Positions 33,194 to 53,152 are shown, counted from the first letter of the stretch. The stretch: 64,000 nt of DNA from Halorutilales archaeon Cl-col2-1 (GCA_041891055.1 CP169074.1:1792001-1856000); one strand, 5' to 3'. Numbers and translations: made by a program. Notes: generated by a model not told the origin, from the letters alone.

Positions 33194-33244
33194 TCTCAGA
33201 TAGTGAACTACCCCACCCTACTCGCTCACGGCTAACGCCGTTCG

Positions 33245-33464
33245 TCTCAAAATCTACGAGTTTGAGGGCTCGCTAATCGGAGATTGGCGAACGCTCCTTG
33301 AGGGTGTCGTCAGAAGTGGAGCTTCTGACTGCTCACAAATCGTAGATTTGTGATGTCTCTGAGGAGACCTCAGAGGCTCGTGAACTTTCGTTCACGATGG
33401 GGCTTCCTGTTTCAACGACGTTGTCAGACTACGTCTGACAGCCTGTCGAGGTTACCTCGACAAA
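33245..33464. repeat. Four double-hairpin micro-insertions in the IS right end
   Basis: 33245-33293 (+, 49 bp), 33307-33355 (+, 49), 33356-33399 (+, 44), 33419-33464 (-, 46). Confidence 0.88.
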
Positions 33465-34665
33465 CGCACTTTGCATCCACGACGGTGGACGACCCACCAG
33501 TCGCGGACGTAGGGAGTGCAGTCTCCGCAGGCGTGACTTCGGCGTGTCCCACGCCTAACTCTGAAAGACCGCGTTGTAGCACGTTGTAGGCGGCGTTCTC
33601 GTCGCGGTCGGTCTCGAACCCACAGGTCGGGCAGGAATGTTCGCGCACCCACAGTTCTTTCTCAACCTCAACCCCGCACTCGGCACACTCTTGGGTCGTG
33701 CCCTCGGGTTCGACTTTCACGAAGTGCGTGTCCTCGCGGTCGCACTTGTATTCGAGGAAGTCGATGAACGTCCGCCACGACGCCGACGCTCTGTTGCGAC
33801 TATTCGACGGCAGTTGCATCATCTCGTGAACGTCAAGGTCTTCCACGGCTACGAGGTCGTACTCACGAGCGTAGTACGCTGAGAGTTTGTGCAGGAAGTC
33901 GCGACGCTTCCGTACAATACGAGCGTGGATGCGGGTCACGCGGCGGCGTTGCTCGTGCCAGTTCTTCGACCCCTTCACCTTGCGACTCAGCGCTCGTTGC
34001 TCGCGTTCGAGCCGTTCGTACTCGTCTTCGAGGTTGAGACTTCCGACCATCGTGCTGTCGGTGTCGTGAGCGTACTTGATGATGCCCACGTCGATACCAA
34101 CCATATCCTCGCGGTCAACCTCATCCAGAGCGGGTTTCTCGGACGCGCCGTCTTCGGTTTCGATGCCGAAGGTGGCGTACCACTCACCCGTTTTCTCTTG
34201 TTTGACCGTGACCTGTTTCACGCGGGCGTCGTCGGGGATGTCGCGGTGGAGGTGTATCGGCATCTCACCAATCTTGGAAAGGGAAAGCACGGTCTGGTCA
34301 CTCGTGTTCTTGAGTTCGAAACCAGACTGGTTGTAGGTGAGGCTCCGATACTCTCGCGGACTCTTCCACTTGAGCATCCCAACCTTGTGCCCATTCTCCT
34401 TCTTTTCTTTGAGGCGGTCGAGGTTGTCGCTGACGCGGCGGGCAACCATTTGCAACACTTTCGAGTACACGTCGGTGAGGTCGTCCCACCAATCTTTCAG
34501 GTCGGGAAGCATATTCTGCATCGCGGTGTACGATAGGTACTCGTCCGTGTTGCGGAGTTCGTACAAGTAGTGGTTGTAGAGTTGCCTACAGGCATCTATA
34601 TGCCGTTCTAGTTCAGATTGAACGGCTTCGTCGGGGTCGATGCGATATCTGTAGTTGTAGTTCAT
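33424..34665 (-). CDS. tnpB: RNA-guided endonuclease TnpB
   Basis: RuvC GIDVG / VEDL / DRDENAA; CxxC...CxxC zinc finger. Confidence 0.95.
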   Translation of the reverse strand: MNYNYRYRIDPDEAVQSELERHIDACRQLYNHYLYELRNTDEYLSYTAMQNMLPDLKDWWDDLTDVYSKVLQMVARRVSDNLDRLKEKKENGHKVGMLKWKSPREYRSLTYNQSGFELKNTSDQTVLSLSKIGEMPIHLHRDIPDDARVKQVTVKQEKTGEWYATFGIETEDGASEKPALDEVDREDMVGIDVGIIKYAHDTDSTMVGSLNLEDEYERLEREQRALSRKVKGSKNWHEQRRRVTRIHARIVRKRRDFLHKLSAYYAREYDLVAVEDLDVHEMMQLPSNSRNRASASWRTFIDFLEYKCDREDTHFVKVEPEGTTQECAECGVEVEKELWVREHSCPTCGFETDRDENAAYNVLQRGLSELGVGHAEVTPAETALPTSATGGSSTVVDAKCVCRGNLDRLSDVV

Positions 34666-34669
34666 CGTG

Positions 34670-34828
34670 TTACTCGTCTTGGTCGTCGGTTTCGTCGGGG
34701 TCGCTGACGCGGATGACTTTCACGTCTGCGCCGCGCCAGTCTTTGGGAACTGTAACGTGGGCACTCCCGCCGAACTCCTTCGCTTCACGGTCAATGATTT
34801 CTTCGCCTTCTAGTTCGAATGTGCCCAT
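34670..34828 (-). CDS. DUF2080-like transposon-associated small protein, 52 aa
   Basis: Hand-read MGTFELEGEEIIDREAKEFGGSAHVTVPKDWRGADVKVIR. Confidence 0.8.
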   Translation of the reverse strand: MGTFELEGEEIIDREAKEFGGSAHVTVPKDWRGADVKVIRVSDPDETDDQDE

Positions 34829-34888
34829 ACACAAATATATATTGGGCATATATTATATGTTTCGGTGGAGAATGACGATAGCTTACGG

Positions 34889-35251
34889 CTGTTGCAAGAT
34901 CTACGATCTTGCTATCCACAAATTCGGAGAATTTGTGACTGTATCCCCGACCTACTGCGTATGAAAATCGAAGATTTACTTGTGCTAGAAAACTCTACGA
35001 GTTTTCTGCATCACAGAAATCTCTGATTTCTGAAGACCCGTGAATCTTAGATTCACGGACGTCCTCAGAACGCGAAGCGTTCTGATGTGCGAACGAGACG
35101 CGAAGCGTCTCGTCAACGCTACTCACTCGCTTCGCTCGTTGTGTTGCCGTCCGAAAATCTTCGATTTTCGTGATCTCGGAAATCTACGATTTCCGACGGT
35201 ACGCGAATCCTTGATTCGCTCGATCACGAGAGAGCGAAGCTCTCTCGAACG
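34889..35251. repeat. Four hairpin micro-insertions in the IS left end
   Basis: 34889-34938 (-, 50 bp), 34958-35059 (-, 102), 35062-35118 (+, 57), 35150-35251 (+, 102). Confidence 0.88.
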
Positions 35252-35297
35252 ACTCCTTAAGGACGGGGACTTAGCCTGTAAGAGTGAAAATCAGAAG

Positions 35298-36359
35298 CTA
35301 CGCCAGGTTCCCCACGACGTTCTCTATCACGTCGACTGCGTTCCTGAACTCGGAGATCTCTATGTGTTCGTCGGGGGTGTGGTCAAGGTTCGAGTCGCCG
35401 GGTCCGTAGGTCACCATCGGACAGTCCCACGACTCGGCGAAGACGTTCATGTCACTCGTCCCCGTCTTGACCGAGAGACCCATGTCGCCGTCCTCGTCAC
35501 GTATCGACCGCGTAAAGGCACGCACGACGGGGTTCGATCTGTCAGCCATAACGGGCTCCGTCGACTCTCCGAAGTAGAGGTCGCCGTCTCCGACGTGTTC
35601 CCTGACTTCGCTCTTGAGCTCGTCGACAGAGTGGCTCGGGGGTATACGTATGTTGCCACGGAGCTCCGACCTGAGTTCGAAGCCGTCGGAGTCGGACTCT
35701 ATGTTGGTGGGCTTAGCCTGTAAACTCCGGAAGCCGTCCTCGTCGTCGGCGACTGTCTTGACGGCGTTCCAGAAGTCTATGACGTCCTCTATCGCATTAA
35801 CACCCGGACGTGCTGTATGTATAACCTCCCCGGTGACACGGTAACGCAGACGGAGTATGCCACGGTATCCGAGTGTGACCGTGTCCCAGCCCGACGGCTC
35901 GCCGTTTATGAGGAACTCGGGCTCTTCGCGGTTCTGTGACAGGTACCGCGCTCCGCGTCCCGACTTCTCCTCCTCGACGACCGCCGCGACGGTGATACGT
36001 CTGTCCGTATCAGTCTCGGCGTGGCGCGCCGCTCCGAGTATCATCGAGGAGAGTGGACCCTTGGCATCGACAGTCCCGCGTCCGTACATCTTACCACCCT
36101 CTATGCTCACGGGAATCTCTCCCGGAACTGTGTCCATGTGGCTCGTGAGGAGTATCTCGTCGGAACTCTCGTCTTCTGTGTTTCCGACACTCGCTATTAC
36201 GTTTCCTACCGAGTCAGTCTCGACCTCGAACCCCATCTCGGGAAGCTCTTCGAGTAGGTAGTCACGTGCCTCGCCCTCGTTCTCTGACGGGCTGTACCTC
36301 TCTACGAATCCCTTGAAGAACTCAATCTCCTCGTCGGAAGATAATGAGACGGATGTCAT
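35298..36359 (-). CDS. argE: [ArgW/LysW]-ornithine/lysine hydrolase (ArgE/LysK)
   Basis: [27 protein letters not shown]; operon context. Confidence 0.88.
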
Positions 36360-36374
36360 CTTCTTGTATTTATA

Positions 36375-39368: not shown

Positions 39369-40224
39369 AATTCTCCTCTATGTAGTCGACGTACTCCGAC
39401 GCGACGTCTATTCCGGTCGCCTCGGTGAGTGCCTTGAACTCTAAGCTGTGGTTGACCTCGTGTACGGTGTATCCGTCGTCGGTCTCCATTACGTCGACCC
39501 CTAAGACGCCTCCACCGACTGCTTCGGCTGCGTCGAGGGCGACTTCTTCGAGTTCGTCGGTAACATCGCAGTTCGACGCCTCGCCCCCTCTCGCGGCGTT
39601 CGTGATCCATTCGTCGCTCGAACGGTAGATCGCTCCTACGATATCGTCTCCGGCTACAATCACACGTATGTCACGTCCGGGCTTGTCGACGTAGTTCTGT
39701 ATGTAGAAGACAGAGTGCTCGTAATGACCAAGGACGTCCTTATGTTCGAGGACTGCCTCCGCCGACTCGGGGTCGTTTATCTTCGCCAAGAGACGTGCCC
39801 ACGAGCCTATAACGGGCTTGACTACGACGGGGTATCCCATCTCGTCTATAGTATCGAGTGCCGAGTCGATGGTGAACGCCACTCTTGTCTTGGGGGTCGG
39901 CACGCCGTTCTCAGTCAGAGCGAGCGAAGTCTCTACCTTGTTCCCACAGACGCGTGAGACCTCATATCCGTTGAGGGTCGGCACTCCGTACGACTCGAAG
40001 AACCTCACCGAGTAGAGCCCGCGCGAGTAACTTATCGCACGGTTGACGACGACATCGAGGTCTTCTACGTCTACGTCAGCTCCCTCGATCCCCGATGCTC
40101 CACTCAGTCCCAGAGAGACGTCGCGTGTGTCTATCTTGACGACGTCGTGTCCTCTGTCCCTCAGCTCGTTGAGGAGTAGCTTCTCGTCCTTACGTATACG
40201 GGAATAAAGGAAGCCGACCTTCAT
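39355..40224 (-). CDS. argX: ATP-grasp ligase ArgX/LysX
   Basis: KPVIGSWARL, KPGRDIR, WITNAARG. Confidence 0.9.
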   Translation of the reverse strand: MKVGFLYSRIRKDEKLLLNELRDRGHDVVKIDTRDVSLGLSGASGIEGADVDVEDLDVVVNRAISYSRGLYSVRFFESYGVPTLNGYEVSRVCGNKVETSLALTENGVPTPKTRVAFTIDSALDTIDEMGYPVVVKPVIGSWARLLAKINDPESAEAVLEHKDVLGHYEHSVFYIQNYVDKPGRDIRVIVAGDDIVGAIYRSSDEWITNAARGGEASNCDVTDELEEVALDAAEAVGGGVLGVDVMETDDGYTVHEVNHSLEFKALTEATGIDVASEYVDYIEENYDSS

Positions 40225-40228
40225 CTAA

Positions 40229-40411
40229 CTACTCTCCCCAGTCCTCTTCGAGTTCGGGTGCCTCTATGAGGTCGAGAGGATCTGTGTCTGCGACCTCAAG
40301 CTCAGCACCGCACTCGGTACAGTCTATTATCTCTCCGCGCTCTACTTCCCATTCTGGCTCTACCTCTGCTCCACATACGGGGCATTCTGCTTTCTGTGTC
40401 ATTCTTGTCAC
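40229..40411 (-). CDS. argW: Amino-group carrier protein ArgW/LysW
   Basis: Two CxxC motifs and C-terminal EEDWGE. Confidence 0.95.
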   Translation of the reverse strand: MTRMTQKAECPVCGAEVEPEWEVERGEIIDCTECGAELEVADTDPLDLIEAPELEEDWGE

Positions 40412-40419
40412 CTGTATAT

Positions 40420-40830
40420 CTATATTTTCTCGTCTAGTATAAGACGTGTTCGTGTCGAGACGGTCTCGTCGAGCTTACGCAGACGCGTCACGAGGTCGTT
40501 GACCTCCGAGGTATCTGAGACGTCGACTACGACTATGAGATCCTCGTTTCCGCTGATCTCCCAGACGAAGTCTACGCCCTCCCAGTCAACTATCTCGTCC
40601 GAGACCTTCGAAGTCTCGACGTCTATGTCGACCTCGACCTCTATCATAGCGCGTACGTTTCCGACACTCGTCGAGACCGTGAAACGGCGTATCACGTCTT
40701 CTTCTCTGAGGCTCCGGACGCGGTTGCGCACTGTACCCTCCGAGGTTCCGACCTCCTCGGCTACCTCTGTGAAGGGCTTGCGTGCGTCGTGTTTGAGTAC
40801 TTCGAGTATCTTACGGTCAGTCGCGTCCAT
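40420..40830 (-). CDS. Lrp/AsnC regulator (LysM-like)
   Basis: DARKPFTEVA...SEGTVRNRV. Confidence 0.9.
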   Translation of the reverse strand: MDATDRKILEVLKHDARKPFTEVAEEVGTSEGTVRNRVRSLREEDVIRRFTVSTSVGNVRAMIEVEVDIDVETSKVSDEIVDWEGVDFVWEISGNEDLIVVVDVSDTSEVNDLVTRLRKLDETVSTRTRLILDEKI

Positions 40831-40869
40831 CGTCTCTTACAGACGAGACGTCGGCTTAGAACATGAAGC

Positions 40870-40884
40870 TTACGAACTTCGTAA
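40870..40884. promoter_or_regulatory. Palindrome TTACGAA-C-TTCGTAA, candidate operator
   Basis: Perfect inverted repeat about 40 bp upstream of the lrp-arg operon. Confidence 0.45.
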
Positions 40885-40999
40885 AGTCTTCTACGAAGAC
40901 GAAAACGCGGTACGTAGACCAAACTCTTCTGACTTACCCACTCTTAACTGAAACAGTGACAACATACTGAACTATATATTTCACTCAGTTTCATAGACA

Positions 41000-41935
41000 T
41001 CAGTCAGTCTCAGACTCCTTTTCGATGTTCGAAGGCGACACACTAGTCCCTACTTTTCCGCCTTCGATAGCCGCCGAGAGACCCTCCGGGGTTGTTATCA
41101 CACCTTTCTCTCCGCCCTTCTCTACGAAGTCGGCACACGCTTCTACCTTGGGCATCATGCTTCCTTCTCCGAACTCCCTTTCTCGTATATGTCGTCTGGC
41201 TTCCTCGGGAGTCATCTCCTCTATACGTCTCTCGTCGTCGGTTCCGTATCCGAGATAGGCGTACTCGACGTCTGTGACCGACACGAATACCTCGGCGTCG
41301 AGACACGTAGCCATAAGACTCGACGTCTTGTCCTTGTCGACCACAGCCTCGACGCCTCTCAGACCTCCGTCCCTCACGACTGGTACTCCACCACCTCCAC
41401 AGCAGATGACGTGCGTGCCGGCTTCGACGGCTCTCGCAATCTCGTCTGACTCGACTATCTTGACCGGGTCGGGGGACGGAACCACCCTTCTGTAGGTTTC
41501 TCCCGTCTTCACGGTATCGAACTCCTTCTCACGTGCTTCTTCCTCGGTGTAATCTGGTCCCACGGGCTTCGTGGGGCTGTCGAAGGCGGTGTCGTCGGGA
41601 TCTACGACAGTCTGTGTGAGAAACGTCACGAACTCCGAGTCGGTCTCAACTGCGTTGTCGAGCTCCTGCTGAAGGAGGTAGCCTATCTGTGCCTGTGTCT
41701 CTGCCACCAACACGTCGAGGGGTATCCTGGGACTCTCAGACCCCTCCTGCTGGAGCATCAGTCTCCCCACCTGTGGACCGTTTCCGTGTGTCACTACGGC
41801 TCTGTGCCCTTCTTCTATCAGACTCGCTATCTCGGACGCAGTCTTCCTAATCTCCTCCCTCTGTTCCTCGACAGTCCCCTCCGCTCCTTTTCTGAGAACT
41901 GCGTTTCCACCTAGTCCTACTACGACTGTTTTCAT
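41000..41935 (-). CDS. arcC: Carbamate kinase
   Basis: LGGNA, THGNGPQVG, PTKPVGP, VVPSP, GSMMPKV. Confidence 0.94.
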   Translation of the reverse strand: MKTVVVGLGGNAVLRKGAEGTVEEQREEIRKTASEIASLIEEGHRAVVTHGNGPQVGRLMLQQEGSESPRIPLDVLVAETQAQIGYLLQQELDNAVETDSEFVTFLTQTVVDPDDTAFDSPTKPVGPDYTEEEAREKEFDTVKTGETYRRVVPSPDPVKIVESDEIARAVEAGTHVICCGGGGVPVVRDGGLRGVEAVVDKDKTSSLMATCLDAEVFVSVTDVEYAYLGYGTDDERRIEEMTPEEARRHIREREFGEGSMMPKVEACADFVEKGGEKGVITTPEGLSAAIEGGKVGTSVSPSNIEKESETD

Positions 41936-41950
41936 ATAGCGTTATTTAAT

Positions 41951-42343
41951 TTAAACGACGGCTTTTACTGATGTCGACGAGACTTCTGCGGCTTTCTCGC
42001 CCTTCTCGGGGAACTCGACCCTGAACTCCCACGTCTCTCCCGCTTCGAGCGTAGACCTCGATGTCTCGGACTCCCCGAGCACAGTACCTCTGCTGTTGGT
42101 GAACTCGACTACGATACTCACGTCGTTGAGTCTACCCCCGCTCACGTTCTCGGCGACACCCGTGACTGCCATAGTCTCGTTGGGTGTTCCCTCGTTCTCG
42201 TGTACGTACTCTATGTCTCCGATGTCTATCCTCTTCTGACCTCCACCGCCCGAACTGCACCCCGCAACCGAGACTGTGGCTGATGTGGCTACTACTCCGA
42301 CGAAACGTCTTCTCGTTATATGTCGTGTCACTGTGTAACGCAC
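41951..42343 (-). CDS. Tat lipoprotein with FxLYD-like domain
   Basis: TRRRFV twin-arginine, VAGC lipobox. Confidence 0.75.
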   Translation of the reverse strand: MRYTVTRHITRRRFVGVVATSATVSVAGCSSGGGGQKRIDIGDIEYVHENEGTPNETMAVTGVAENVSGGRLNDVSIVVEFTNSRGTVLGESETSRSTLEAGETWEFRVEFPEKGEKAAEVSSTSVKAVV

Positions 42344-42502
42344 CGGTTTCCACCGCGGACTCTGAGGTTATATATCTAAGTCAGACGCGTGTCGTATCTC
42401 TGTGTTACCGAAGCCCGTTTCTATATAGCGACATAGGATTTAAACGAGCCACAGCCGTCGTCTTTCCGAACTCTCTATACGGTTCGACGAATAAATTCGG
42501 CT

Positions 42503-43372
42503 GTGGCTCGTAACATAGCACCCGTATTCACTCAGCTTGAGGACAAGGACATACGCGTTCTCAACGCAGTCGAGAGAGGCATGAAGTCCTCGGAGTGGGT
42601 TCCTGAGTCCGAGATCGCGGGTCTCGCGCGTCTTCCACCCGAGGAGACCGAGTACCGTATCAGCAGACTTGAGGACAGAGAGTTAATAACGGGTGAGACG
42701 GTTCAGTACAGGGGATACCAGCTTCTCTTCGCGGGATACGACGTACTCGCTCTCAACAGCTTCGTAAAAGCCGATCAGCTTACTGCGATGGGTGCGAAGG
42801 TCGGCGAGGGGAAGGAGAGCGTCGTCTACGAGTGCAAGAACGACGACACTAACCTCGTGGTCAAGCTCCACCGTGAGGGCTACTCGAGTTTCCGTGAGGT
42901 CGACCGTCACAGGGAGTACACAGCCGACAAACACCACGTAAGCTGGATGTACACCGCGAGGAAGGCAGCCGAGAAGGAGTACGACGCACTCGTCGACCTC
43001 CACCCCGATGTCTCTGTTCCTAAGCCAGTCGACCACAGCAGACACGCCGTTCTCCTCGAACGTATGGATGGCATCGAACTCAGGAGAGCCGACCTCGACA
43101 AGCCACGTGTCGTCTTCGACACCGTCGTAACAGAGCTGTCCAAGGCTTGGGAGAGAGGCTACGTACACGCAGACATAAGCGAGTACAATATCTTTGTCTC
43201 GGGGAGTCAGATATGGATCTTCGACTGGCCTCAGAGTGTCGAGACACAGCATCCACACGCCGAAGAGCTTCTGAGACGAGACCTCAACAACCTCGTAAGC
43301 TACTTCTCACGTACCTACCCGAAGACGGAGTTCCCTGCCGTCGAAGACGTTATAGAGACTGTACGTGGCTGA
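42503..43372 (+). CDS. rio2: RIO2 kinase
   Basis: wHTH N-terminus, GEGKES, HADISEYN, FDWPQ. Confidence 0.93.
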   Translation: MARNIAPVFTQLEDKDIRVLNAVERGMKSSEWVPESEIAGLARLPPEETEYRISRLEDRELITGETVQYRGYQLLFAGYDVLALNSFVKADQLTAMGAKVGEGKESVVYECKNDDTNLVVKLHREGYSSFREVDRHREYTADKHHVSWMYTARKAAEKEYDALVDLHPDVSVPKPVDHSRHAVLLERMDGIELRRADLDKPRVVFDTVVTELSKAWERGYVHADISEYNIFVSGSQIWIFDWPQSVETQHPHAEELLRRDLNNLVSYFSRTYPKTEFPAVEDVIETVRG

Positions 43373-43914
43373 TACAGTTCGCGTTCCCCTCTAACTCCTT
43401 TCTGACCTCTAACCTTCTGACTCTGAACCTCTTTCTCCACCCATGTCTAAAACGTACTTTGTGCTGTTTAACTGTGATATCTAATATTAGGGGATTATCT
43501 TAGGACACTAAGTACTGGTTTAATCTAATTTCTAATATTAGACTGGGATTTGTGTCGGAGAACTTCTGAGATCCGCGACTCCTGGGGTCTCGTGAACCGA
43601 GGATTCACGACCAGGTACGTAGATCTTTGATTTGCTTTACCGTGAAGCCTCGGAAACACCCAACTTCGAGGTACTAATCCTCTGAATCTGCCCGGTCTCG
43701 GAAAACCCGTTTCCGACCCCTCTAATGTAGGGGGTTCGACGGTATTAGAGTAATAATCCGTATCTGTAGACTACTGTATCTCTGTCTCAAACTCTCTGAT
43801 ATACCCCTATACACGGCAGATAGACACTACATAAATCTTATTCCGCTATACAGTCACCCGGTATTTCCCAACTACTTACTGTATAGAGAAGATACGTGTA
43901 TACGGTGAAAACAG

Positions 43915-44082
43915 ATGGGATTTGGATCTTATGACGAGAGTGAACAGGAGAACCAGCAGGAAGATATTGAGACCGACGAGGATGAGATAATCACCACGGA
44001 GTCGTACGACGGCGAAGAGACCGTAGAGGCGGAGAGTGCCGACGAGCTCCTCGAAACCTACAAGCAGAACAAGGACGACTGA
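43915..44082 (+). CDS. Small acidic haloarchaeal protein (DUF5786-like), 55 aa
   Basis: Hand-read MGFGSYDESEQENQ...KQNKDD. Confidence 0.75.
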   Translation: MGFGSYDESEQENQQEDIETDEDEIITTESYDGEETVEAESADELLETYKQNKDD

Positions 44083-44154
44083 GACTCTTTTTCTTCTGTC
44101 TTCTACCTAACGTCTGACAAAGATATATTAACTGCCTAATGTTAGATATGTCTG

Positions 44155-44616
44155 ATGTCAGACTCCTCGAAGTCGAACGAAAAGGACTGGGAGAACGGTC
44201 TCAAGAGTGAGCCCGTGACGACGTATGTGAGTTACGAGACGAAGGAGATCTGGAAACAACACGCCGAAAACCTCGATACCACACTCAGCCGGTTCGTCGA
44301 GATGATGGTAAACGCGGGAAGATCGATGTACGACGACACCGCTCCTGAGGGATACGAGGACTCGGATCTCGTCTCGGCGAACCGTGAGATTCAGGCTCTC
44401 AGAGACCGGATCGAGGAGATAGAGTCACATCCTGAGTCGGCTGATCCCATAGATGTCTATACGTCTCTCGGCGAGGGCTATGTCACCGTAGACGAGATAT
44501 CCGAGTCGATGGAGTACTCCGAGTCGGAGGTCTACGAGGCACTTCAAACTCTTCTCGACGAGGAGGTCGTCGAGTACGACCCCATGAGGAACGCATACAG
44601 GAGGACGGATGCGTAG
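44155..44616 (+). CDS. RHH plus wHTH protein (DUF5805-like) coupled to the recombinase
   Basis: VTTYVS...W..HA..L.TTLSRFV; overlaps the next gene. Confidence 0.7.
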   Translation: MSDSSKSNEKDWENGLKSEPVTTYVSYETKEIWKQHAENLDTTLSRFVEMMVNAGRSMYDDTAPEGYEDSDLVSANREIQALRDRIEEIESHPESADPIDVYTSLGEGYVTVDEISESMEYSESEVYEALQTLLDEEVVEYDPMRNAYRRTDA

Positions 44617-45721
44617 GATAGGTGCTCAAGACCCACTCGACGAGGTCGAGGATCTCGAAGATCACGACTTCATCTCTTACTTCATCGAGGACATGGAAGC
44701 GTATGGCAAATCTTCCTCAACGCTCTACGAGTACGAACGTGTTCTGCGTGACTTCGACGACTTCACTGACACCCACCACGCGCGCGCCTCGAGACGTGAC
44801 TGCATGGGCTATATCTCCGACCTCCGTAGTCGGGGACTCTCAGCGTCGACGGTCTCGACCTATGCCTCCTATCTCCACAGATTCTACTCGTACCTCGTCA
44901 AGGCGGACGAGTTCCCCCACTCTAACAACCCGATGGCTCTCGTCACTGAGGAGATGAGCGAGGGAATAGACAAGAATCCCCAGAGACGTGAACTCTCGGT
45001 CACCGACGTCACTGAGTTCCTCAAGACTGTGAATCACCCGAGGGACAGATGTATACTCGTCACCCTCTTCAAGACGGGGATGCGCGCGGGTGAGCTTTCG
45101 AACCTCAAACTCGAAGACATCTCACTGACTACTGACCTCGACGATGAGTTCGGTCTCGGTGGAAACGCGCGTCTGAGTCGGAACTCACTCCTCGTCGTTA
45201 GCGACAGAGACGGAAACAAACGTCTGCGTGACACTCTGATCCCCATCGACGACGAGCTCAGGAAAGAGCTCGTGAGATGGCTGCGTGTGCGTCCCGAGAA
45301 TGGTAGTTCTCGTGGGCGCGTGAATCAGAAGATTCACGAACGTCTCGAAGCGGAAGCTTCGATGGCTCGGAAATCAGAGATTTCCGAACGTCCCGAGACT
45401 GACTCGGACGCCGTCTTCGTCTCTCTCAGCAGAGCGTCCGAGACGGGAAGTCTCAGCCCTGAGGCGGTCTCTTCCCTGATGAGGAAGTACACTCAGCCTT
45501 ACGGCTGGTGGGAGGAGGGAAGAGGTCTTGAGGAAAACGTCACCCCGCATTACTGCCGCCATTTCTTCACGACCCATCTCAGAGAGGCTTCGGGAGACGA
45601 CGCCCTCGTCAAGTACCTAAGAGGCGATGTCGGCGGAGACGTGATCGAGACCTACACCCATCAGTGGGGTGACAACGTCCGTGAGAGCTATGAGAAGTAC
45701 ATATACCGTCTCGTTTCCTGA
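44609..45721 (+). CDS. XerA-like tyrosine recombinase with a 33-aa insertion
   Basis: TGMRAGEL, TPHYCRHFFTT, terminal catalytic Tyr (ETYTH). Confidence 0.9.
   Translation: MRRIGAQDPLDEVEDLEDHDFISYFIEDMEAYGKSSSTLYEYERVLRDFDDFTDTHHARASRRDCMGYISDLRSRGLSASTVSTYASYLHRFYSYLVKADEFPHSNNPMALVTEEMSEGIDKNPQRRELSVTDVTEFLKTVNHPRDRCILVTLFKTGMRAGELSNLKLEDISLTTDLDDEFGLGGNARLSRNSLLVVSDRDGNKRLRDTLIPIDDELRKELVRWLRVRPENGSSRGRVNQKIHERLEAEASMARKSEISERPETDSDAVFVSLSRASETGSLSPEAVSSLMRKYTQPYGWWEEGRGLEENVTPHYCRHFFTTHLREASGDDALVKYLRGDVGGDVIETYTHQWGDNVRESYEKYIYRLVS
45292..45390 (+). repeat. Two tandem double-hairpin micro-insertions (51 + 48 bp), in frame
   Basis: Each unit TC...AACG; removal restores WLRVRPETDSD. Confidence 0.9.
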
Positions 45722-45742
45722 GGTATATGTCCCTCATAAACT

Positions 45743-46075
45743 CTATTTCGCTATACTGAACACGGTGACTGTGACGAGACAGACGACGTATCCCACGACG
45801 AAGCCGACGGCAGCCGGTACCAGAGACCCCGAGAGACTGAGAGAGAGTCCTGAGAAGAGACGTCTCAGACCCACGAGAATCCAGACGACCTCGAAGACGA
45901 CACCGATTCCGACGAGGGCTACGACTCCGTAGACGGCGTATCTCACGAGACGGAGGACTTTCTTTATGTCTTGGTACTCCTCCGAGACTTCCTCCAGAGA
46001 TCCGAGTAAGTGTTCTGTGATGATGAGGGCGAGCCTGTACACAGTCGACCGCGAGCCTGAGCCGTCTTGGGTCAT
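45743..46075 (-). CDS. Small membrane protein
   Basis: Two hydrophobic helices. Confidence 0.55.
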   Translation of the reverse strand: MTQDGSGSRSTVYRLALIITEHLLGSLEEVSEEYQDIKKVLRLVRYAVYGVVALVGIGVVFEVVWILVGLRRLFSGLSLSLSGSLVPAAVGFVVGYVVCLVTVTVFSIAK

Positions 46076-46153
46076 GGTTCCGGTGTATAAAGACTCGGGT
46101 GACTTCTACCTTTCGTCCGTATATTTATGTTCTGCCGACACGAGTTACAGCCG

Positions 46154-48319
46154 ATGGGTAATCTCTCGAAGCTCTTCTCGCCTTCACGTGTCGCAGTAAT
46201 TGGAGCGACCGATAGGGAGGGGTCTGTCGGACGTGTGGTGACACAGAACCTCGTCTCGGGGTTCGAGGGAGAGGTGATCGCTGTCAATCCCAACAGGGAC
46301 GAGGTTCTCGGACTTCCGACTTACACCGACGTCGGCTCCGTTCCGGGTGAGATAGACCTGGGCGTCGTAATAGTGCCGGCTCCCGTGGTTCTGGAGGTTC
46401 TCGAAGAGATGGGGAAAGCTGGCGTCACGAACGCCGTCGTCATAACCGCGGGGTTCTCGGAGGCGGGCGACGAGGGGAAGGCGAGAGAGGAGAGGCTGAA
46501 GGAGATCGCCGACGAGTACGGAATCAGCCTCGTAGGTCCCAACTGTATAGGAATAGTAAGTAGTGATTCGGGTCTCAACACGACCTTCACGACCGTGAAA
46601 TACTCGAAGGGAGCCACGTCTTTCATGAGCCAGTCGGGGGCTCTCATAGGTGCAGTCCTCGAATGGGCACCCTCTCACAACATGGGTTTCAACCAAGTCG
46701 TCTCTCTCGGCAACAAGGCTGTACTCGACGAGACCGACTTCATCGAGGACTGGAGTGACGACCCCGACACCGACGTAGTGATGGCATATCTCGAAAGCAT
46801 TGAGGACGGGAGACGTTTCATCAAGAAGACACGTGAGGCTGTGACTGAGACTCCCGTAGTCGCTCTCAAGGCGGGTAGGTCCGAGAAAGGATCGAGGGCG
46901 GCGTCTTCACACACGGGGGCTCTCGCTGGGAGCGACGAGGCGTACGACTCCGCCTTCAGACAGTCAGGCGTCATAAGAGCTGAGACACTTCTCGAACTCT
47001 TCGACTACAGTGACACGCTCGCTGATCAGCCGGTTCCCGAGAAGGACGGCTTAGCAGTGGTCACCAACGGTGGAGGACCCGGGGTCATAGCTACCGACGC
47101 GGTCAGTGACTCGATCGTCTCGTTCGCGGATCTGAGCCACGAGACCGTCGACTACCTCGAAGACCGTCTCCCCGAATCGGCTGTCGTTGAGAATCCTCTC
47201 GACATAATAGGAGACGCAGACGTCGACAGGCTGTCTGACTCACTCGATGCAGTTCTTGGAGATCCTGACGTCGGCGGTGCTCTCGTCATAGTCACTCCGA
47301 ACGGAGTCCTCGACTACAGAGAAGCCGTCGATCCGATAGAGGAAATCCAGAGACGTCACTCGAAGCCCGTAGTGACTTGTATGATGGGCTCCAACGACGA
47401 GACGAGCCAGAGGCTGAGTCAAGCAAACCTACCCGACTTCTTCGATCCTGAGAGGGCGGTCGGGAGCTACGAGGCTCTTGAGAGGTACAGACGTATAAGA
47501 CAGAGATCCCGGGAAGAGAGACACGTCACGGAGTTCGACGTCGACGAGGGGAGGGCACGCGGGATAATCCGAGAAGCCGTCGAAGAGGGTCGTAACCGTC
47601 TCGGCGTCGAGTCGATGGAGATACTCGATGCCTACGGGATACCCACTCCCGACGGCACTGTCGTCGAGACAGCCGACGAAGCCGACGAGGCGGCACGCAG
47701 TATCGACTCCGAAACCGGTACTGTCGTCCTCAAGATAGTCAGCCCCGACATAAGCCACAAGACAGACGTCGGCGGTGTCAGAACGCGTGTCTCCCCAGAC
47801 GACGTCAGAGACGTCTTCTCGGAGATGGTCGAGGAGGTTCGAGACAGACGTCCCGAAGCCGAGATAGAAGGTATTCTCGTACAGGAATCTGTCGACGTCT
47901 CGAAGGGCGAGGAGGTCATAGTCGGTGCGAGAAGCGATCCTCAGTTCGGTCATCTCCTCGTGTTCGGTCTCGGAGGTGTATTCGTCGAGGTCTTCAAGGA
48001 CGTCTCTTTCCGTGTCCCACCTGTCACTCAGCGAGAGGCGGAGGAGATGACCCGCGAGATAGAGTCGGCACCTCTCCTCCGAGGTGCGAGAGGACGTGAC
48101 CCCCTCGATACCGACGGTGTCACTGAAGTCATACAGAGGCTGTCGCAGATGGTGACCGAGATAGATGCGATCGAAGAAGTCGAGGCTAATCCTGTCTTCG
48201 TGGGAACTGGCGGCGTTCAGAAATCTTCTATTTCTGATTCTGAGGACGTCAACCGAAGATTGACGGATGTCGTTGCGCTTGACTTCCGTATGACGGTCGA
48301 CGAGAGCCGGGTCGGTTAA
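46154..48319 (+). CDS. Acetate-CoA ligase (ADP-forming), fused subunits
   Basis: VGPNCIG, SQSGA, SHTGALAG, HKTDVGGV. Confidence 0.92.
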   Translation: MGNLSKLFSPSRVAVIGATDREGSVGRVVTQNLVSGFEGEVIAVNPNRDEVLGLPTYTDVGSVPGEIDLGVVIVPAPVVLEVLEEMGKAGVTNAVVITAGFSEAGDEGKAREERLKEIADEYGISLVGPNCIGIVSSDSGLNTTFTTVKYSKGATSFMSQSGALIGAVLEWAPSHNMGFNQVVSLGNKAVLDETDFIEDWSDDPDTDVVMAYLESIEDGRRFIKKTREAVTETPVVALKAGRSEKGSRAASSHTGALAGSDEAYDSAFRQSGVIRAETLLELFDYSDTLADQPVPEKDGLAVVTNGGGPGVIATDAVSDSIVSFADLSHETVDYLEDRLPESAVVENPLDIIGDADVDRLSDSLDAVLGDPDVGGALVIVTPNGVLDYREAVDPIEEIQRRHSKPVVTCMMGSNDETSQRLSQANLPDFFDPERAVGSYEALERYRRIRQRSREERHVTEFDVDEGRARGIIREAVEEGRNRLGVESMEILDAYGIPTPDGTVVETADEADEAARSIDSETGTVVLKIVSPDISHKTDVGGVRTRVSPDDVRDVFSEMVEEVRDRRPEAEIEGILVQESVDVSKGEEVIVGARSDPQFGHLLVFGLGGVFVEVFKDVSFRVPPVTQREAEEMTREIESAPLLRGARGRDPLDTDGVTEVIQRLSQMVTEIDAIEEVEANPVFVGTGGVQKSSISDSEDVNRRLTDVVALDFRMTVDESRVG
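48214..48267 (-). repeat. Double-hairpin micro-insertion, 54 bp, in frame
   Basis: Minus strand TC-cgtcaatc/ggttgacg...cagaaat/atttctg-AACG. Confidence 0.8.
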
Positions 48320-48324
48320 GATAT

Positions 48325-50061
48325 TTAGTCCTTAGACGACGGTACTGGTGTCAGAGGTTTGTTTTTCCCGTCCCTGAGGCGCACCGTGACAACGGTTCCT
48401 CGCGGCTCCCTGTCTTCGAACTCCAGGTCTCCACCTGATCTCTTGACTATCCAGTGGACGAGCCAGAGTCCGAGACCGCTTCCGTGGTATAAGGGCTCTA
48501 TCTCCCGTTCGTCGCCGAGAACCCCGATGTCCGAATCGGGTATCCTTGATCCGTTGTCCGAGACTCTTATCTCGACCGAGGTGTCGGATTTCTCGACCTC
48601 GACAGACACACGTGGCGTCTCCGTGTCGTTGTGCTCGACAGCGTTGTTGACTAACTCGTCTACTGCACGCGGTATCTGAGGGACTACGTAGGCTGTCGTC
48701 TCTGAGTCTGGGGTGTGAACCTCTATCTCAGCTTCGGGGTATCTCTCCTCATACTCCGAGAGTCTCCTCTCGACTGTCTCGGCGATGTCGACCTCCTCGG
48801 GCGGCGACCTGTCGGAGATTATCTCGACTAACTCGCGTTCCTTGTCAGTGGTGTCGAGCAGACGGTTGCCGACCTCACGTATCTTCTCGGCATATCTTCT
48901 CTCGTCGTCTGTCAGGGACTCCGACTCAGAAAGTTCCTCCGAGTAGCCGAGTATTATGTTCATCTTGTTATGCATGTTGTGGCGGAGGACACGGTCGAAG
49001 ACCTCGAGGTGCTTCTGTCTCTCCTTGAGTTCGCTGTTGAGGACTCGAAGCTCCTTCTCTCTCTTAATACGGTCGAGTGTCGCCTTTGCGTTTCTCGCGA
49101 GTGTCTCGACGAAACGCACGTCTGAGTCGTCGAAAGCTGCCTTGTGTGTCTCACCGACGCTCACGGTTCCGTACCCCTCTATCGGGACGTACATCACCGA
49201 TCTAACGTCTTTCCTGTCGTACTCCGTCTCGACTTCACGTATGTCGTCGAAGACGTATGTCTCCGACTCCCTGTACGCTTTCCCAGCAAGGCTGTCGTGT
49301 ACAGGATACGTCGGCGTTCCGCCTCTGACTTCCTCCGTCTCTGACGTTGACGACACAATAACGAGCTCTTCACTGTCGTCGTCTGTGAAACGCACTCCGT
49401 TTGCGGGGAACCCGAGTACATTCTTCGTCGCCTTGACGATTCTCTGAGCCACCTCGTCGGCGTCGTCGGCGTCTATTAGCTCACGTGTCGTCTCGTGTAG
49501 GCTAGTGAGTATCTCTTCGCTCCTCTGTAGTCTCTCGACGTTCTTCCTCTGGTCTATGGCAAGCTTGAGAAGAGACGCGACTGTCTTTCCTGCGTTTACG
49601 GCGTGGTCGTCGTACTCAGTCTCCTCGCTCGACTCGGGTGCTCCTGTTCCTATGAGTCCGTGCTCACCCACGGGAATCATTATCCCAGACCCCACCGGGA
49701 GTTCGGGATGAACTTCGCTGACATCGTAGATGCTTATGCCGTCACTCTCGAACTGATCCCATTCCAGGTCGTGTCTTCTAATCTCCGTAGGAGCGAACTC
49801 GTCTGCCGACTCGGTTGCTTTTACGAGATTCAGACGTTCTTCCTCCTCATCACGTATCCAGCAAGCCCCGAACGGCAGATCGACTATGTCTGTGAGAGAA
49901 TCCACGGCGATCTCACACAGCCTGTCGATATCTTTCACCCTGTCGTCCTGGAGCCTCCGCGCTGCCTCGTAGACAGACCTGACGGTCTTACCCGGGTCTG
50001 CGTCGAAGTCTGTGCCGGAGTCAGAGCCTGAGGACTGTCCCTCCGAGCCTTTATCCCTCAT
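48325..50061 (-). CDS. GAF-domain sensor histidine kinase
   Basis: Two GAF-like domains, LRHNMHN, HGSGLGLWLV. Confidence 0.9.
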   Translation of the reverse strand: MRDKGSEGQSSGSDSGTDFDADPGKTVRSVYEAARRLQDDRVKDIDRLCEIAVDSLTDIVDLPFGACWIRDEEEERLNLVKATESADEFAPTEIRRHDLEWDQFESDGISIYDVSEVHPELPVGSGIMIPVGEHGLIGTGAPESSEETEYDDHAVNAGKTVASLLKLAIDQRKNVERLQRSEEILTSLHETTRELIDADDADEVAQRIVKATKNVLGFPANGVRFTDDDSEELVIVSSTSETEEVRGGTPTYPVHDSLAGKAYRESETYVFDDIREVETEYDRKDVRSVMYVPIEGYGTVSVGETHKAAFDDSDVRFVETLARNAKATLDRIKREKELRVLNSELKERQKHLEVFDRVLRHNMHNKMNIILGYSEELSESESLTDDERRYAEKIREVGNRLLDTTDKERELVEIISDRSPPEEVDIAETVERRLSEYEERYPEAEIEVHTPDSETTAYVVPQIPRAVDELVNNAVEHNDTETPRVSVEVEKSDTSVEIRVSDNGSRIPDSDIGVLGDEREIEPLYHGSGLGLWLVHWIVKRSGGDLEFEDREPRGTVVTVRLRDGKNKPLTPVPSSKD

Positions 50062-50127
50062 ATGACACCGTTCCTACAACCCTACACGACTGAGGATAAT
50101 AGATTTTTGGGAGGTTTATAAGGAGCC

Positions 50128-50310
50128 TCAGGCAATCTCGCCGAAGGAGCCGAAGTACCTGTCGAGTGCTGCCTCAACTGCTTCGTCTTCGTCGTCGAAC
50201 TCGTCGAGTGCCTCACTCAGAAGCTCCAGGAAGTAGGAGTCGTTGACGAGACGGCTCGCGTTACGTCTCGTGAGTCTGCGTCCGTCGTCGGAATCTGTGT
50301 TCTTCCTCAT
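50128..50310 (-). CDS. Small hypothetical protein
   Basis: Acidic 60-aa ORF in frame with host codon style. Confidence 0.5.
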   Translation of the reverse strand: MRKNTDSDDGRRLTRRNASRLVNDSYFLELLSEALDEFDDEDEAVEAALDRYFGSFGEIA

Positions 50311-50354
50311 CCTCTGCGCCCTAAGTCTTCCTCGTTGAAGAAACTGTCTGTGGT

Positions 50355-50711
50355 TTACACGAGATCGGCTTCTGGGTCGCCTTTAGTTTTGTAGAGATCG
50401 TCCCAGGCGGTTATGCCGCCTTGAAGGTTGTAGATCTCGTCGAAGTCGTCGAGGTTGGAGAGGAAGTCGCAGGCGTCCTGACTTCTCGATCCGCTGTGGC
50501 AGTAGACGAGGAGTTTGTCGCCTTCTATCTCGTCGACCCTGTCCGGGAGTATTTCGACCGGTATCAGATGGTCGACGCCGGGTACTCTCTTCCACTCGTA
50601 CTCGTCGGGATTCCTCACATCGAGGAGAGTATAATCGCCGCCCTCTACCATCTCCTTTGCTTCGTCAGGTGTTACGTCGTTGAAGTTCTGATTCTGTGTT
50701 ATCTCTTTCAT
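50355..50711 (-). CDS. Rhodanese-domain protein
   Basis: LDVRNPDEY, YCHSGSRS, NLQGGITAW. Confidence 0.9.
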   Translation of the reverse strand: MKEITQNQNFNDVTPDEAKEMVEGGDYTLLDVRNPDEYEWKRVPGVDHLIPVEILPDRVDEIEGDKLLVYCHSGSRSQDACDFLSNLDDFDEIYNLQGGITAWDDLYKTKGDPEADLV

Positions 50712-50768
50712 ATTACAACTGTAGTACCACAGCCATATAAGTCTTACCACCACTGAAGAATGGTGGTG

Positions 50769-51371
50769 TTATTTCAGCGCAAGGATCGACTCGCCTGCTC
50801 TAACTGTGTCACCCTCATCGACTTCGAGGTCGTCACGTGAGTATCCGCTAGGAAAGACGATGTCGACGCGTGAACTGAACGCAATCATTCCTATGCGTTC
50901 GCCCCTTTCTACGGAGTCACCTTCATCGAGGTAGGACGTCACTCGTCTCGCGACTGTGCCCGCTATCTGTACCGTCTCTAACTCTCCGTCCGGGGTCTCG
51001 AACCGTGTTACCACGCGCTCGTTTCTCTCGCTTGACTTCGAGAAGGCAGGGAGATGACTTCCGTCTATATGTGTCTGTGATACGACCTTTCCGTCGAGAG
51101 GAGCTCTGTTGACGTGGACGTTGTGGAGGTTCATGAAGACGCCGACGCGGAGCCCTCCCTCCTCCTGCCTTACGACTGAGACACGTCCGTCGGCGGGAGA
51201 GACGACGCCCTCGTCAGGCACGTCACGGTCGGGGTCTCTGAAGAAGGCGGCGATGAGTACGGGAACGCCTAGAAGAGACAGGCTTAGGGGGGAGTCCCAG
51301 AACGGCACTGCGACGAGTGGGAGACAGCCCAGTAGAATCCATCCCAGGGAGCCTTCTGCTAGTCTCGGCAT
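50769..51371 (-). CDS. psd: Archaetidylserine/phosphatidylserine decarboxylase
   Basis: FFRDPDR, SPADG, HVNRAP, FSSRVD. Confidence 0.9.
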   Translation of the reverse strand: MPRLAEGSLGWILLGCLPLVAVPFWDSPLSLSLLGVPVLIAAFFRDPDRDVPDEGVVSPADGRVSVVRQEEGGLRVGVFMNLHNVHVNRAPLDGKVVSQTHIDGSHLPAFSKSSERNERVVTRFETPDGELETVQIAGTVARRVTSYLDEGDSVERGERIGMIAFSSRVDIVFPSGYSRDDLEVDEGDTVRAGESILALK

Positions 51372-51460
51372 TTAACGTTGAGACGCCGACTTGACGGTTA
51401 AGGATTTCCGTCCACTAGTGTCAACTACCCCACCCTACTTCGCTCGGTCTGACGACCTCA

Positions 51461-51557
51461 TCTGTAAATCTTTGATTTACAGGCACGCGAATCGAAGATT
51501 CGCGAACGTCTCAAACTCTACGAGTTTGAGGGCTCGGAAATCAGAGATTTCCGAACG
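51461..51557 (+). repeat. Two tandem double-hairpin micro-insertions (48 + 49 bp)
   Basis: 51461-51508 and 51509-51557, each TC...AACG. Confidence 0.9.
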
Positions 51558-52899
51558 CTCGTTGAGAATGGGGCTTGTCCATGTACTCAACCTCTAACCT
51601 CTCGGTGGAGGAACTACCCTCACTCGGTTTCAGTGTACCGGACTTAAGGGCAAGTTGACACGTTGCCCGTCCGTCCTGTGACTTTTGCACACGACGGACG
51701 TGTTGCGAATCGTTAGATTCGCATACGTCTGCAAAGCTTTGCTTTGTAACATAACGAAGACCGACATTCTTAGAAGCGTTGTAGTCTGCGTCTACCGAAT
51801 ACCCACACTCTCGACACTCAAAGTCGTGTTTCGTCCTGCGGTTACTTCGGTCGGTGTGTCCACAGCGAGAACAAGTCTGACTCGTGTACTCTGGATTCAC
51901 CGACTCGACAGAAACGCCGTACTCTTCGGCTTTGTACTCCACGAACGCGACGAACTGATTGAACGCCCACTGCTGAAACTCTTTGTTGTTCGAGATACGC
52001 TCACGGATGCCGTCAAGCTCCTCGAACACAATAGTAGAACAGTCGTAGCGTACAGCCTCTTCTACGATTTCGTTAGCCCACTTGTGGTACTTCTGATTAC
52101 TCCACTGGCTGAAACGGTCGCCCATACGTTCTATGACCTCGTGAGCGCGACGCGAGCCGTTTCGTTGGAGTGACGCACGCCTACTCTCGTATTCGTCACG
52201 TTCGTGGTTGATATGGTCGCTTGAACCTACGAACCGCCCCGTAGAGGTGACGGCGAAGCTACCTGTGCTGTTCAGGTCTACACCGAGAACCGTTCGCAAA
52301 TCTTCAATCTGCGAGCCATCGAAGCTCCCGCTTCGAGACGTTCCGCTCTCGGTTTCTCCTACGTCCTCTTCTTTCACGACTGAGATATGCAGGTAGTAGT
52401 CGCCGCCCCTGTGGTGTAGCGTCGCCTCTTTCCGTCCCCACTCTTCGGAAAGGTACTCTGTCTGGGGGTTGTCGCCCGTTTCGTCAATCACGAAGTCGGC
52501 TTGTACACGCCCGTCCACGGTTGCGAGAGTACAGCCTTCGTCGGTATACGTGACGGTTCGGTAGTCGTAGGCGACGAACCAACTCTGGAACGTGGGTTTG
52601 GTGGCTTGTTCGCCTTCTTTCCACCGGTTGATTACCTGTTGTAGGCTGTCTACGGCGTAGTCACGCGCCTTCTGTATCAGTCCGGTGTTGAGTCCGGTCT
52701 GTTCCTTGATGTCATCGTAGGTCTGTTCGTGTAGCCACGTCTTGCGCGTGTCTATGTGACCGCCGTCAGTTCGGTTGTTCCATGCGTAGTCTACGGTGTA
52801 CTGACATGCTTCTCGGAACGCCCTGAACGTCTCTCGTAGGCGTTCCTCGTCGGAGCCGTCAACGTCAAGCTTGACCTGTACAGTACGCCGTAGCTCCAT
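51541..52899 (-). CDS. tnpB: RNA-guided endonuclease TnpB with two in-frame insertions
   Basis: LGVDLN / VFEEL / DADYNAS; zinc finger; insertions at 51701-51751 and 52291-52338. Confidence 0.93.
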   Translation of the reverse strand: MELRRTVQVKLDVDGSDEERLRETFRAFREACQYTVDYAWNNRTDGGHIDTRKTWLHEQTYDDIKEQTGLNTGLIQKARDYAVDSLQQVINRWKEGEQATKPTFQSWFVAYDYRTVTYTDEGCTLATVDGRVQADFVIDETGDNPQTEYLSEEWGRKEATLHHRGGDYYLHISVVKEEDVGETESGTSRSGSFDGSQIEDLRTVLGVDLNSTGSFAVTSTGRFVGSSDHINHERDEYESRRASLQRNGSRRAHEVIERMGDRFSQWSNQKYHKWANEIVEEAVRYDCSTIVFEELDGIRERISNNKEFQQWAFNQFVAFVEYKAEEYGVSVESVNPEYTSQTCSRCGHTDRSNRRTKHDFECRECGYSVDADYNASKNVGLRYVTKQSFADVCESNDSQHVRRVQKSQDGRATCQLALKSGTLKPSEGSSSTERLEVEYMDKPHSQRAFGNL

Positions 52900-53138: not shown

Positions 53139-53152
53139 GAGTTGACGGGCTG

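Follow-up and report, generated by a model that had tools for sequence, protein, structure and literature searches.

Hairpin doublets of about 48 nt in a Halorutilales archaeon: whole-unit gain and loss, and a near absence of linkage between the two halves

Small palindromic repeats, among them REPs, REPINs and bacterial interspersed mosaic elements (BIMEs), have been well studied in bacteria. The REPINs of bacteria were reportedly described by Bertels and Rainey in 2011. The BIMEs of enterobacteria are mosaics: arrays in which palindromic units alternate in orientation and a few kinds of linker connect them. Tagged REPs of the GTAG/CGTC type have 8-9-bp stems, 4-5-nt loops and a tetranucleotide tag and occur mainly as inverted dimers; the frequency of "heterodimers" among them was stated to be unexplained, and in the sections of that paper used here archaea are named in the reference list only (Di Nocera et al. 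2013, PMC3733652). The term BIME is that of PMC2817692. On the archaeal side, the parts of Dyall-Smith et al. (2011, PMC3119063) used here describe PATEs of Haloquadratum walsbyi, including 52-bp terminal-only forms (HqIRS46, ISHwa23 remnant). In the literature searched, which did not include most subscription journals, we found no REP-like doublets and no re-assortment of their halves described for archaea, and the only related archaeal elements found there were the PATEs and SMRs of Haloquadratum. Here we describe a family of hairpin doublets of about 48 nt in Halorutilales archaeon Cl-col2-1, starting from a 64,000-nt stretch (the window) of its 2.06-Mb, four-contig genome (55% G+C), which is that of a halophile-like archaeon. 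Our reading, to which we give a probability of roughly 0.6, is that the doublets are gained and lost as 48-nt units, that their halves are re-assorted by exchange at microhomologies, and that a Y1 transposase acting in trans is the likeliest engine.

The doublets are REP/PATE-like mini-palindromes in a variant form. Like the bacterial REP dimers and REPINs they consist of small palindromes with 8-9-bp stems, mostly in the form of inverted dimers whose tag ends point outwards; as in REP heterodimers, the partners differ in stem or loop; and as with REPs, some copies lie in genes and are translated in frame, and abundance varies between close relatives (all as described in the portion of PMC3733652 considered). 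Short high-copy palindromes of 20-40 bp, which define REPs and REPINs, were what we found genome-wide, in 132 arrays with 350 hairpin modules. Unlike bacterial REPs, they have an archaeal host, 3-nt loops and spacers of 1-4 nt, stack head to tail and favour the ends of TnpB elements. Of the REP tags GTAG and CGTC, the latter is present on one of the two units, its partner having CGTT. No RAYT-type gene was identified, although RAYT identity itself was not tested; one ordinary IS200/IS605 Y1 gene was all that was found. Like BIMEs, the doublet arrays are alternately oriented palindromes joined by few linkers, but sequences, host domain and unit size are different and the arrays have a fixed dimer period. 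With PATEs, as far as the consulted text of PMC3119063 describes them, the doublets share a haloarchaeal host, the lack of a transposase, near-terminal palindromes of IS605-type elements, a length of about 50 bp, polymorphism between strains and suspected mobility, and in PATEs repeat-mediated deletions have been documented; at 48 nt the doublets are too short for a transposase, and hairpins of their types lie at tnpB ends and beside tnpA. Re-assorted halves, stacking and a fixed 48-nt doublet grammar are not described for PATEs in that paper. The SMR-A elements of Haloquadratum likewise have no transposase, have inverted ends and strongly prefer to insert into the near-terminal palindromes of PATE/IS605-type elements, but measure some 110 bp and are commonly more than 95% identical within a type in that same account (PMC3119063, in part), whereas the doublets have 48 nt and highly polymorphic stems, so that only the target preference, with 46 of the 132 arrays at or in tnpB elements, fits SMR-A.

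The hairpin family and its repeating unit

The original prediction, made from the window alone, held that hairpins are shared between units in different pairings, and each of the sharings that it listed was found in the sequence. The hairpin tctcaaa(c/a)tctacgagtttgagggct is common to 51507-51535 and 33243-33271, and cggaaatcagagatttccgaacg to 51534-51557 and 45367-45390; a tcgaagc hairpin is present in both 45338-45390 and 52291-52343 with unlike partner hairpins, these two being inverted 53-nt copies that are 87% complementary; and a cgctaatc hairpin stands at the end of its array at 33271-33293 and in the middle of three hairpins at 53151-53226. Across the genome, AATCNNNGATT occurred in 194 copies as compared with 8-62 for six control patterns, and perfect stems of 8-9 bp closed by a 3-nt loop numbered 280, against 22 in a shuffled main contig. 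A scan tolerating one mismatch yielded the 350 modules, in which the loop was 3 nt long in 294 and the stems 8-9 bp, and arrays of at least two hairpins, most of them with two (91), three (16) or four (17) hairpins and single or few cases with up to nine; the spacing between hairpin centres peaked at 23-25 nt (135 of 218 spacings). Folding of the 111-nt stretch 51455-51565 gave four hairpins at -32 kcal/mol (z = -7.9), a value equalled by none of 200 shuffles. The repeated hairpin pattern is thus far beyond chance. Rfam at gathering thresholds returned nothing for the whole window except one tRNA, and no RNA evidence was listed for 51300-53300.

When arrays were oriented by their linkers, which was possible for 78 of the 132 (the other 54 carried no orientation signal), the repeating unit proved to be a doublet of about 48 nt, with the sense strand CG/TTC-(N3-AATC-loop-GATT-N3')-G(A/T)GC-C(n)-(second hairpin)-(n)GACG/, where the slashes mark its borders. 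A pattern search gave 87 candidates; 76 passed the end criteria and 69 start with TTC. In the tag consensus the left unit is preceded by CGTTC and the right unit is followed by GGACG, which on the opposite strand reads CGTCC. Column consensus gave the left unit and the reverse-strand right unit one common build, CGTYC-stem-loop-stem-KRG, and their loops were polarised oppositely, with 32 pyrimidine and 12 purine loops among 61 left units and 13 and 22, respectively, among 61 right units. Because of this common build on opposite strands and the opposed loop polarity, the doublet, judged from its sequence, is a head-out inverted dimer of two REP-like hairpins, and the GGCT of the original prediction is the G(A/T)GC linker on the other strand, that is, the tail-to-tail joint. 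A partner was present for 105 of 109 tagged left hairpins by script, and the remaining four had a decayed partner by eye. The solitary doublet was the most frequent grammar (20 of the 78 oriented arrays); in longer canonical arrays two linker types alternated as aba or ababa, with doublets stacked head to tail at the GACG/TTC junction, and two internal linkers followed each other in a single oriented array, at 53180.

Other doublet sub-families with different linkers were also present. One of 49-51 nt, (T)TAAGCNAATC…GTAC…TCGTGAATC…GAGA-like, was seen on contig C1 at 552710, 645162, 906659 and 928591, and it too showed clean presence or absence relative to the same-genus genome described below. 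Among 301 genomes sampled from the order, the tagged left unit of the AATC type was found in nine, belonging to 3 of 91 genera, and controls gave none; the two genomes that represent this genus had 38 and 31 copies, the others 1-7. Nearly all of the copies listed for another genus (G020, G035 and G050) had one stem allele (GAA); at least 10 left-stem alleles circulate in this genus.

Gain and loss of whole doublets between two genomes

For comparison we used one draft genome of the same genus (the congener, G001; 120 contigs), of which 66 contigs were compared, amounting to 1.757 of about 1.9 Mb. The strict unit pattern had 23 matches in the congener and 24 in this genome, and window positions 40001-60000 were syntenic with one congener contig at 91-96% identity. 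When the flanks of 100 array regions were matched to the congener, both flanks fell in one place for 44, and 28 of these loci, with unique flanks aligned over at least 200 nt, were taken as positional orthologues. Length differed by at least 38 nt at 20 of the 28. Of the 23 indels of at least 20 nt at these loci, 13 measured 48-51 nt and three 92-99 nt, the others being 38, 69, 155, 162, 171, 207 and 254 nt long; in the wider set of 44 loci, 22 of 34 indels were of 46-57 nt and five of 92-105 nt. No indel of 20-30 nt was detected by script among the loci compared with the congener. The only single-hairpin (23-nt) difference was noticed by eye, at the 53151 array, where the GTAAATC hairpin of 23 nt is missing from the congener and where other modules, about 162 nt in all, immediately follow the congener's AGCC linker.

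Within the window, the congener lacked the 99-nt integrase block at 45301-45399, the 48-nt doublet at 59606-59653 and, at the orthologous site, the 48-nt outer doublet at 51459-51506; the inner doublet at 51507-51557 and the tnpB-internal doublet at 52291-52343 were identical in both genomes. The doublet at 59606-59653 follows codon 8 of a PIN-like gene (59582-60049; MKLVIDAN/VVISALI…) and adds an in-frame stop (…VFRSMI, then stop), and the PIN-like gene of the congener is intact, without interruption. Public metagenome contigs also skipped the 99 nt of the integrase (two contigs) and the 48 nt of the outer tnpB doublet; these contigs, which possibly come from the population of the congener, are not independent of it. 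The comparison showed gain or loss of entire doublets, at exact sites, from one congeneric genome to the other.

Pairing of the two hairpins and its origin

Association between the parts of the doublet was measured against shuffles after doublets had been clustered by their flanks to drop copies of shared descent; this reduced the 76 doublets of this genome to 61 clusters and the 133 of both genomes to 95. The right stem was tied tightly to its own loop (excess mutual information 0.62, z = 16), to the 3' linker (0.59) and to the foot (0.79); the left stem was tied weakly, both to its own loop (0.30) and to the right stem (0.21, 95 clusters). In those 95 clusters the distances between left stems and between right stems were uncorrelated (Mantel r = 0.047, p = 0.17), so that hairpins 1 and 2, compared separately across the genome as the original prediction had suggested, paired incongruently, as it expected. 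Where two doublets had the same right allele (125 pairs), the left stem was also in common in 23 (background 9%), and where they had the same left allele (92 pairs), the right stem was in common in 19 (background 4%); seven quartets with all four combinations were complete. A column-by-column linkage map of 82 doublets with 3-nt loops resolved three blocks: the two variable left-stem positions with their pairing partners, a small block of left loop and foot, and a large block from the 3' linker through five bases behind the right hairpin. Block boundaries coincided with the invariant AATC/GATT and G(A/T)GC, the main one lying in G(A/T)GC. The left hairpin is therefore almost unlinked to the right hairpin in the doublet pool.

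The original prediction had further proposed that recombination at GGCT builds two-, three- and four-hairpin variants; in a strict form of this scheme, reciprocal recombination there would join single hairpins. The linkage boundary in the linker and the seven quartets agree with this, as does the 53151 array, with other modules directly behind AGCC in the congener and one extra 23-nt hairpin here. A process that adds hairpins singly is at odds, however, with array lengths that change by about 48 nt at a time (13 of the 23 indels of the positional orthologues and 22 of the 34 of the wider set), with the failure of the script to find indels of 20-30 nt, with the presence of a partner for every one of the 109 tagged left hairpins, with consecutive internal linkers in one oriented array of 78, and with the fact that no junction was mapped to the linker. 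The data support the re-assortment of halves with a boundary at the linker; they do not support the building of two-, three- and four-hairpin variants by linker recombination, and we regard the strict form of the scheme as improbable.

Change in place was followed in 99 hairpins of this genome at the 28 positional orthologues. Forty-eight were missing in the congener and 27 were identical; 13 stems had changed without compensation and one with it, three loops had point changes, three loops were flipped to the reverse complement with stem and flanks unchanged, three hairpins differed at four or more arm positions, and one lay in a gap. Background divergence was 7.2% (217 of 3030 columns). At that divergence, 13 uncompensated changes as against one compensated change indicate that inserted hairpins decay like neutral DNA, and hence that the diversity of perfect stems is not made in place. 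Neither did the two halves behave as congruent lineages diverging by point mutation alone, the outcome that the original prediction had set against itself. A scheme without any exchange, in which compensated mutation proceeds stepwise and alleles converge in a small state space (three left-stem positions and the loop), would account for the network of single compensated steps among left-hairpin alleles (GCA-GCG-GCT, GTG-GCG, GGA-AGA) and for a left stem that, in the column map, is unlinked even to its own loop; the in-place decay speaks against it, as do 17-nt second-hairpin alleles that are identical in the 125 pairs with the left stem unlike in 102, and the enrichment of chimeric arms described below (p = 0.0045), and we consider it still less probable than the strict linker scheme.

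Two further ideas on stem perfection were considered and dropped. Self-templated correction, in which a mutated arm would be copied to the other arm and new perfect stems would arise in place, was rejected on the 13 to 1 ratio (17 to 1 in the wider set). The idea that hairpins are born perfect found a weak trend only, perfect 8-bp stems being present in 64 of 97 species-specific and 77 of 142 shared hairpins. The loop flips were seen on C1 at 1421088, 1509358 and 1726797 relative to the congener, and at C1 1656124 relative to C2 61986; the flipped loops were gta/tac twice, aaa/ttt and tga/tca, which looks like flip-flop inversion inside a palindrome.

Traces of exchange between units were found at two loci and in the hairpin pool. 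At C1 246233 the congener has a deletion of 49 nt between the AATCTC of two successive left hairpins, which leaves a chimeric hairpin with arms from two different alleles; at C1 78731 repeats of the right (second) hairpin, 22 nt in length, enclose a 51-nt indel. In both genomes together, 10 of 189 left-type hairpins had at least two arm mismatches, and in five of the 10 both arms were common alleles, against an expected share of 0.125 (binomial p = 0.0045). The exchange junctions observed thus lay in the AATC core or in the repeated second hairpin. We prefer exchange at invariant microhomologies as the source of the shuffling. Doublets that are neighbours or lie at ectopic sites would exchange parts by slippage, by copy-choice or by unequal recombination and so re-pair their units, with breakpoints in the invariant stretches TTC, AATC/GATT, G(A/T)GC and GACG. 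A junction in AATC would yield a broken hairpin and so be visible, and one at GACG/TTC would take out a complete doublet; one in G(A/T)GC would produce a doublet of normal appearance with a new partner, seen only as lost linkage and able to spread thereafter.

The engine that we consider likeliest for the movement of doublets would be single-stranded DNA mobilisation in trans by an IS200/IS605 Y1 transposase, an idea already put forward for REPs and PATEs, and this is the weakest step of the explanation. A minimal IS200/IS605 element moved by TnpA is characterised by subterminal hairpins on the left and right, insertion 3' of a fixed short target, a single-stranded intermediate and dependence on the Y1 transposase. 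Such an engine is suggested by the constant ends (TTC…GACG), by insertion behind CG, by hairpin-loop and GACG targets and by the hairpins beside tnpA; insertions were found behind CG, in many cases within the loop of a hairpin or following the GACG of a second doublet. The Y1 transposase (PF01797) is encoded by one gene in this genome, beside a tnpB like an ordinary IS200/IS605 tnpA, and is adjoined by a six-hairpin array that is kin to the doublet arrays; the same hairpin type lies beside tnpA genes in three genomes, and the congener has four Y1 matches. More tentatively, and with considerable doubt, the family might be an archaeal counterpart of REPINs that forms a recombining population: 48-nt mini-transposons in TnpB guide-RNA ends and in hairpin loops of genes, whose halves would be re-paired by copy-choice during single-strand-based copying, with new combinations made within transposition rather than by later accidents.

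Several points weigh against the reading that we favour, that is, 48-nt gain and loss with exchange at microhomologies and Y1 in trans. Gain can be told from loss in few cases, namely the PIN gene, the chimeric hairpin and doublet-free insertion sequence (IS) copies; the loci were picked from arrays of this genome, which biases the count of 27 indels here versus seven in the congener; and the congener was compared as an incomplete draft (66 of 120 contigs). Left-right stem linkage is reduced and still present (residual z = 5.3). No junction could be placed inside the linker among the 34 mapped indels, the evidence for exchange there being the linkage pattern. The A/C site in the linker, which occurred in all six combinations with three left-hairpin types, was set aside as proof of recombination because it lengthens the stem by one pair and may mutate recurrently. 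No Y1 match was found in two unit-carrying genomes of another genus, which are only 78% complete. Two points speak against a site-specific transposase in particular: CG stands on either side of the doublets here but the empty sites of the congener are mostly TG, CA or AG, and in two cases a stretch of 8-10 nt is common to insertion and target. Insertion would then either replace two bases or hit newly arisen CG sites only. This sharing and the altered empty sites would also fit templated, microhomology-primed copying. Sites with CG here and TG, CA or AG in the congener were seen at C1 1774567, 1851609 (window 59606), 1621355, 219449 and 1374314. Lack of target duplication characterises PATEs, and these sites are what bears on it in the doublets.

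Mobility of single hairpins, with dimers forming anew by adjacent landing, would make the partners independent, and it agrees with the build shared by both hairpins on opposite strands and with the one 23-nt difference between orthologues; given that none of 109 tagged left hairpins is solitary and that indels are doublet-sized, we judge it very unlikely.

The tnpB elements, the window and what the doublets may tell

The TnpB nuclease domain had 33 matches genome-wide, and of the 132 arrays 22 lay at most 450 nt behind a tnpB, 18 in front, six inside and 86 elsewhere. Compared by eye, the bare right end of these elements reads AAGCCCC-(slot 1)-…CCTCAACGAGCG-(slot 2)-small hairpin-GAGCGAAGTAGGGTGGGGTAGTT, in which doublets occupy two fixed slots; doublets also sit in the left end of such elements. 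The numbers of hairpins in slot 1 and slot 2 among tnpB copies were 0+0, 2+0, 0+2, 2+2, 4+2, 0+4 and 4+4, the two elements of the window having 4+2 (33243-33397) and 0+4 (51459-51557). The region from the tnpB stop to the right end is the coding region of the guide (omega) RNA in characterised TnpB systems (PMC4615843, in the part used). That the hairpins are a selected structured RNA, such as decorations of that guide RNA, with their variety as covariation under selection, would suit the many arrays in this region and a recurrent T·G pair at the left-hairpin foot in one orientation, yet we hold it to be the least probable of all, with related IS copies carrying 0, 2, 4, 6 or 8 hairpins in the slots, stems decaying uncompensated, loops flipping strand, copies in either orientation within open reading frames (ORFs) and between genes, and the lone tRNA as the Rfam result for the window.

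Two close IS copies, 95.5% identical over 1513 nt and at different loci, had wholly unlike slot 2 doublets between identical flanks. The pair had been considered as a whole-doublet replacement at an orthologous IS right end (C1 1161010 and contig C16), which was rejected: the IS is missing at the syntenic contig C46, and C16 holds another copy. The whole tnpB element at C1 1161133-1162422 was missing at that syntenic congener site, with the 95.5%-identical copy elsewhere, which suggests that this IS moved recently. Hairpin pairs also lie directly behind tRNA genes, at C1 1671524-1671570, 182120-182189 and 1656349-1656393; that at 1671524 (50 nt) was missing in the congener.

The features of the window are collected in Table 1. 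The slot 2 doublet at 33243-33293 has one arm mismatch in each of its hairpins. The integrase block at 45301-45399 has a 10-nt repeat, CGTCCCGAGA, at its flanks and is located in the loop of a native hairpin, and a native hairpin, CCGAGAAC/GTTCTCGG, likewise carries the doublet at 52291-52343 in its loop; both the doublet at 45343 in the integrase and that at 52291 in tnpB are translated in frame. The small ORF at 59345-59575, upstream of the PIN-like gene, may be its antitoxin partner.

Table 1. Hairpin arrays, doublets and associated genes of the 64,000-nt window
Position	Strand	Feature
12794..12930		Two arrays, one of 3 and one of 2 hairpins, similar in type to those at tnpB left ends
33148..33190	-	Solitary doublet (GTCAATC.ttc / TCCAGAA.caag), just past the tnpB element's right end
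33203..33242	-	Last segment of the IS right end (…GAGCGAGTAGGGTGGGGTAGTTCAC), containing a separate small hairpin; by-eye comparison with other tnpB 3' ends
33243..33293	-	Slot 2 doublet, unit 33245 of the original prediction (GCCAATC.tcc.GATTAGC / CAAACTC.gta.GATTTTG)
33308..33397	-	Slot 1 of the IS right end: two doublets (four hairpins), immediately behind the tnpB stop region
33424..34665	-	IS1341-type tnpB ORF, 413 aa
34892..35247		Three arrays, with 2, 5 and 4 hairpins, lying 5' (left-end side) of the 413-aa tnpB
44609..45721	+	Tyrosine integrase ORF, 370 aa, Phage_integrase and SAM-like domains; hosts an array
45301..45399	-	In-frame block of 99 nt, about two doublets, within the integrase
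51422..51458	-	Second tnpB element, terminal segment of its right end
51459..51506	-	Outer doublet (GCGAATC.ttc / GTAAATC.aaa), 48 nt
51507..51557	-	Inner doublet (GGAAATC.tct / CAAACTC.gta), unit 51509 of the original prediction
51541..52899	-	IS1341-type tnpB ORF, 452 aa, Cas12f1-like TNB domain
52291..52343	+ (opposite to gene)	tnpB-internal doublet (GCAAATC.ttc, decayed / TCGAAGC.tccc)
53151..53226	-	Three-hairpin array (GTAAATC.taa, GCTAATC.ata and CAAGATC.gga, the last decayed)
59606..59653	-	Doublet of 48 nt (CTCAATC.gga / TCAGATC.ata)

With a genus pair diverged by about 7% and clean 48-nt steps at most doublet loci, the unit, target and rate of movement of such elements become measurable, and the sharp linkage boundary between the halves makes exchange between mini-elements testable. 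Lying in the guide-RNA region of TnpB, and translated inside an integrase and a tnpB, the doublets also bear on how far RNA-guided nucleases, and proteins, tolerate insertions.

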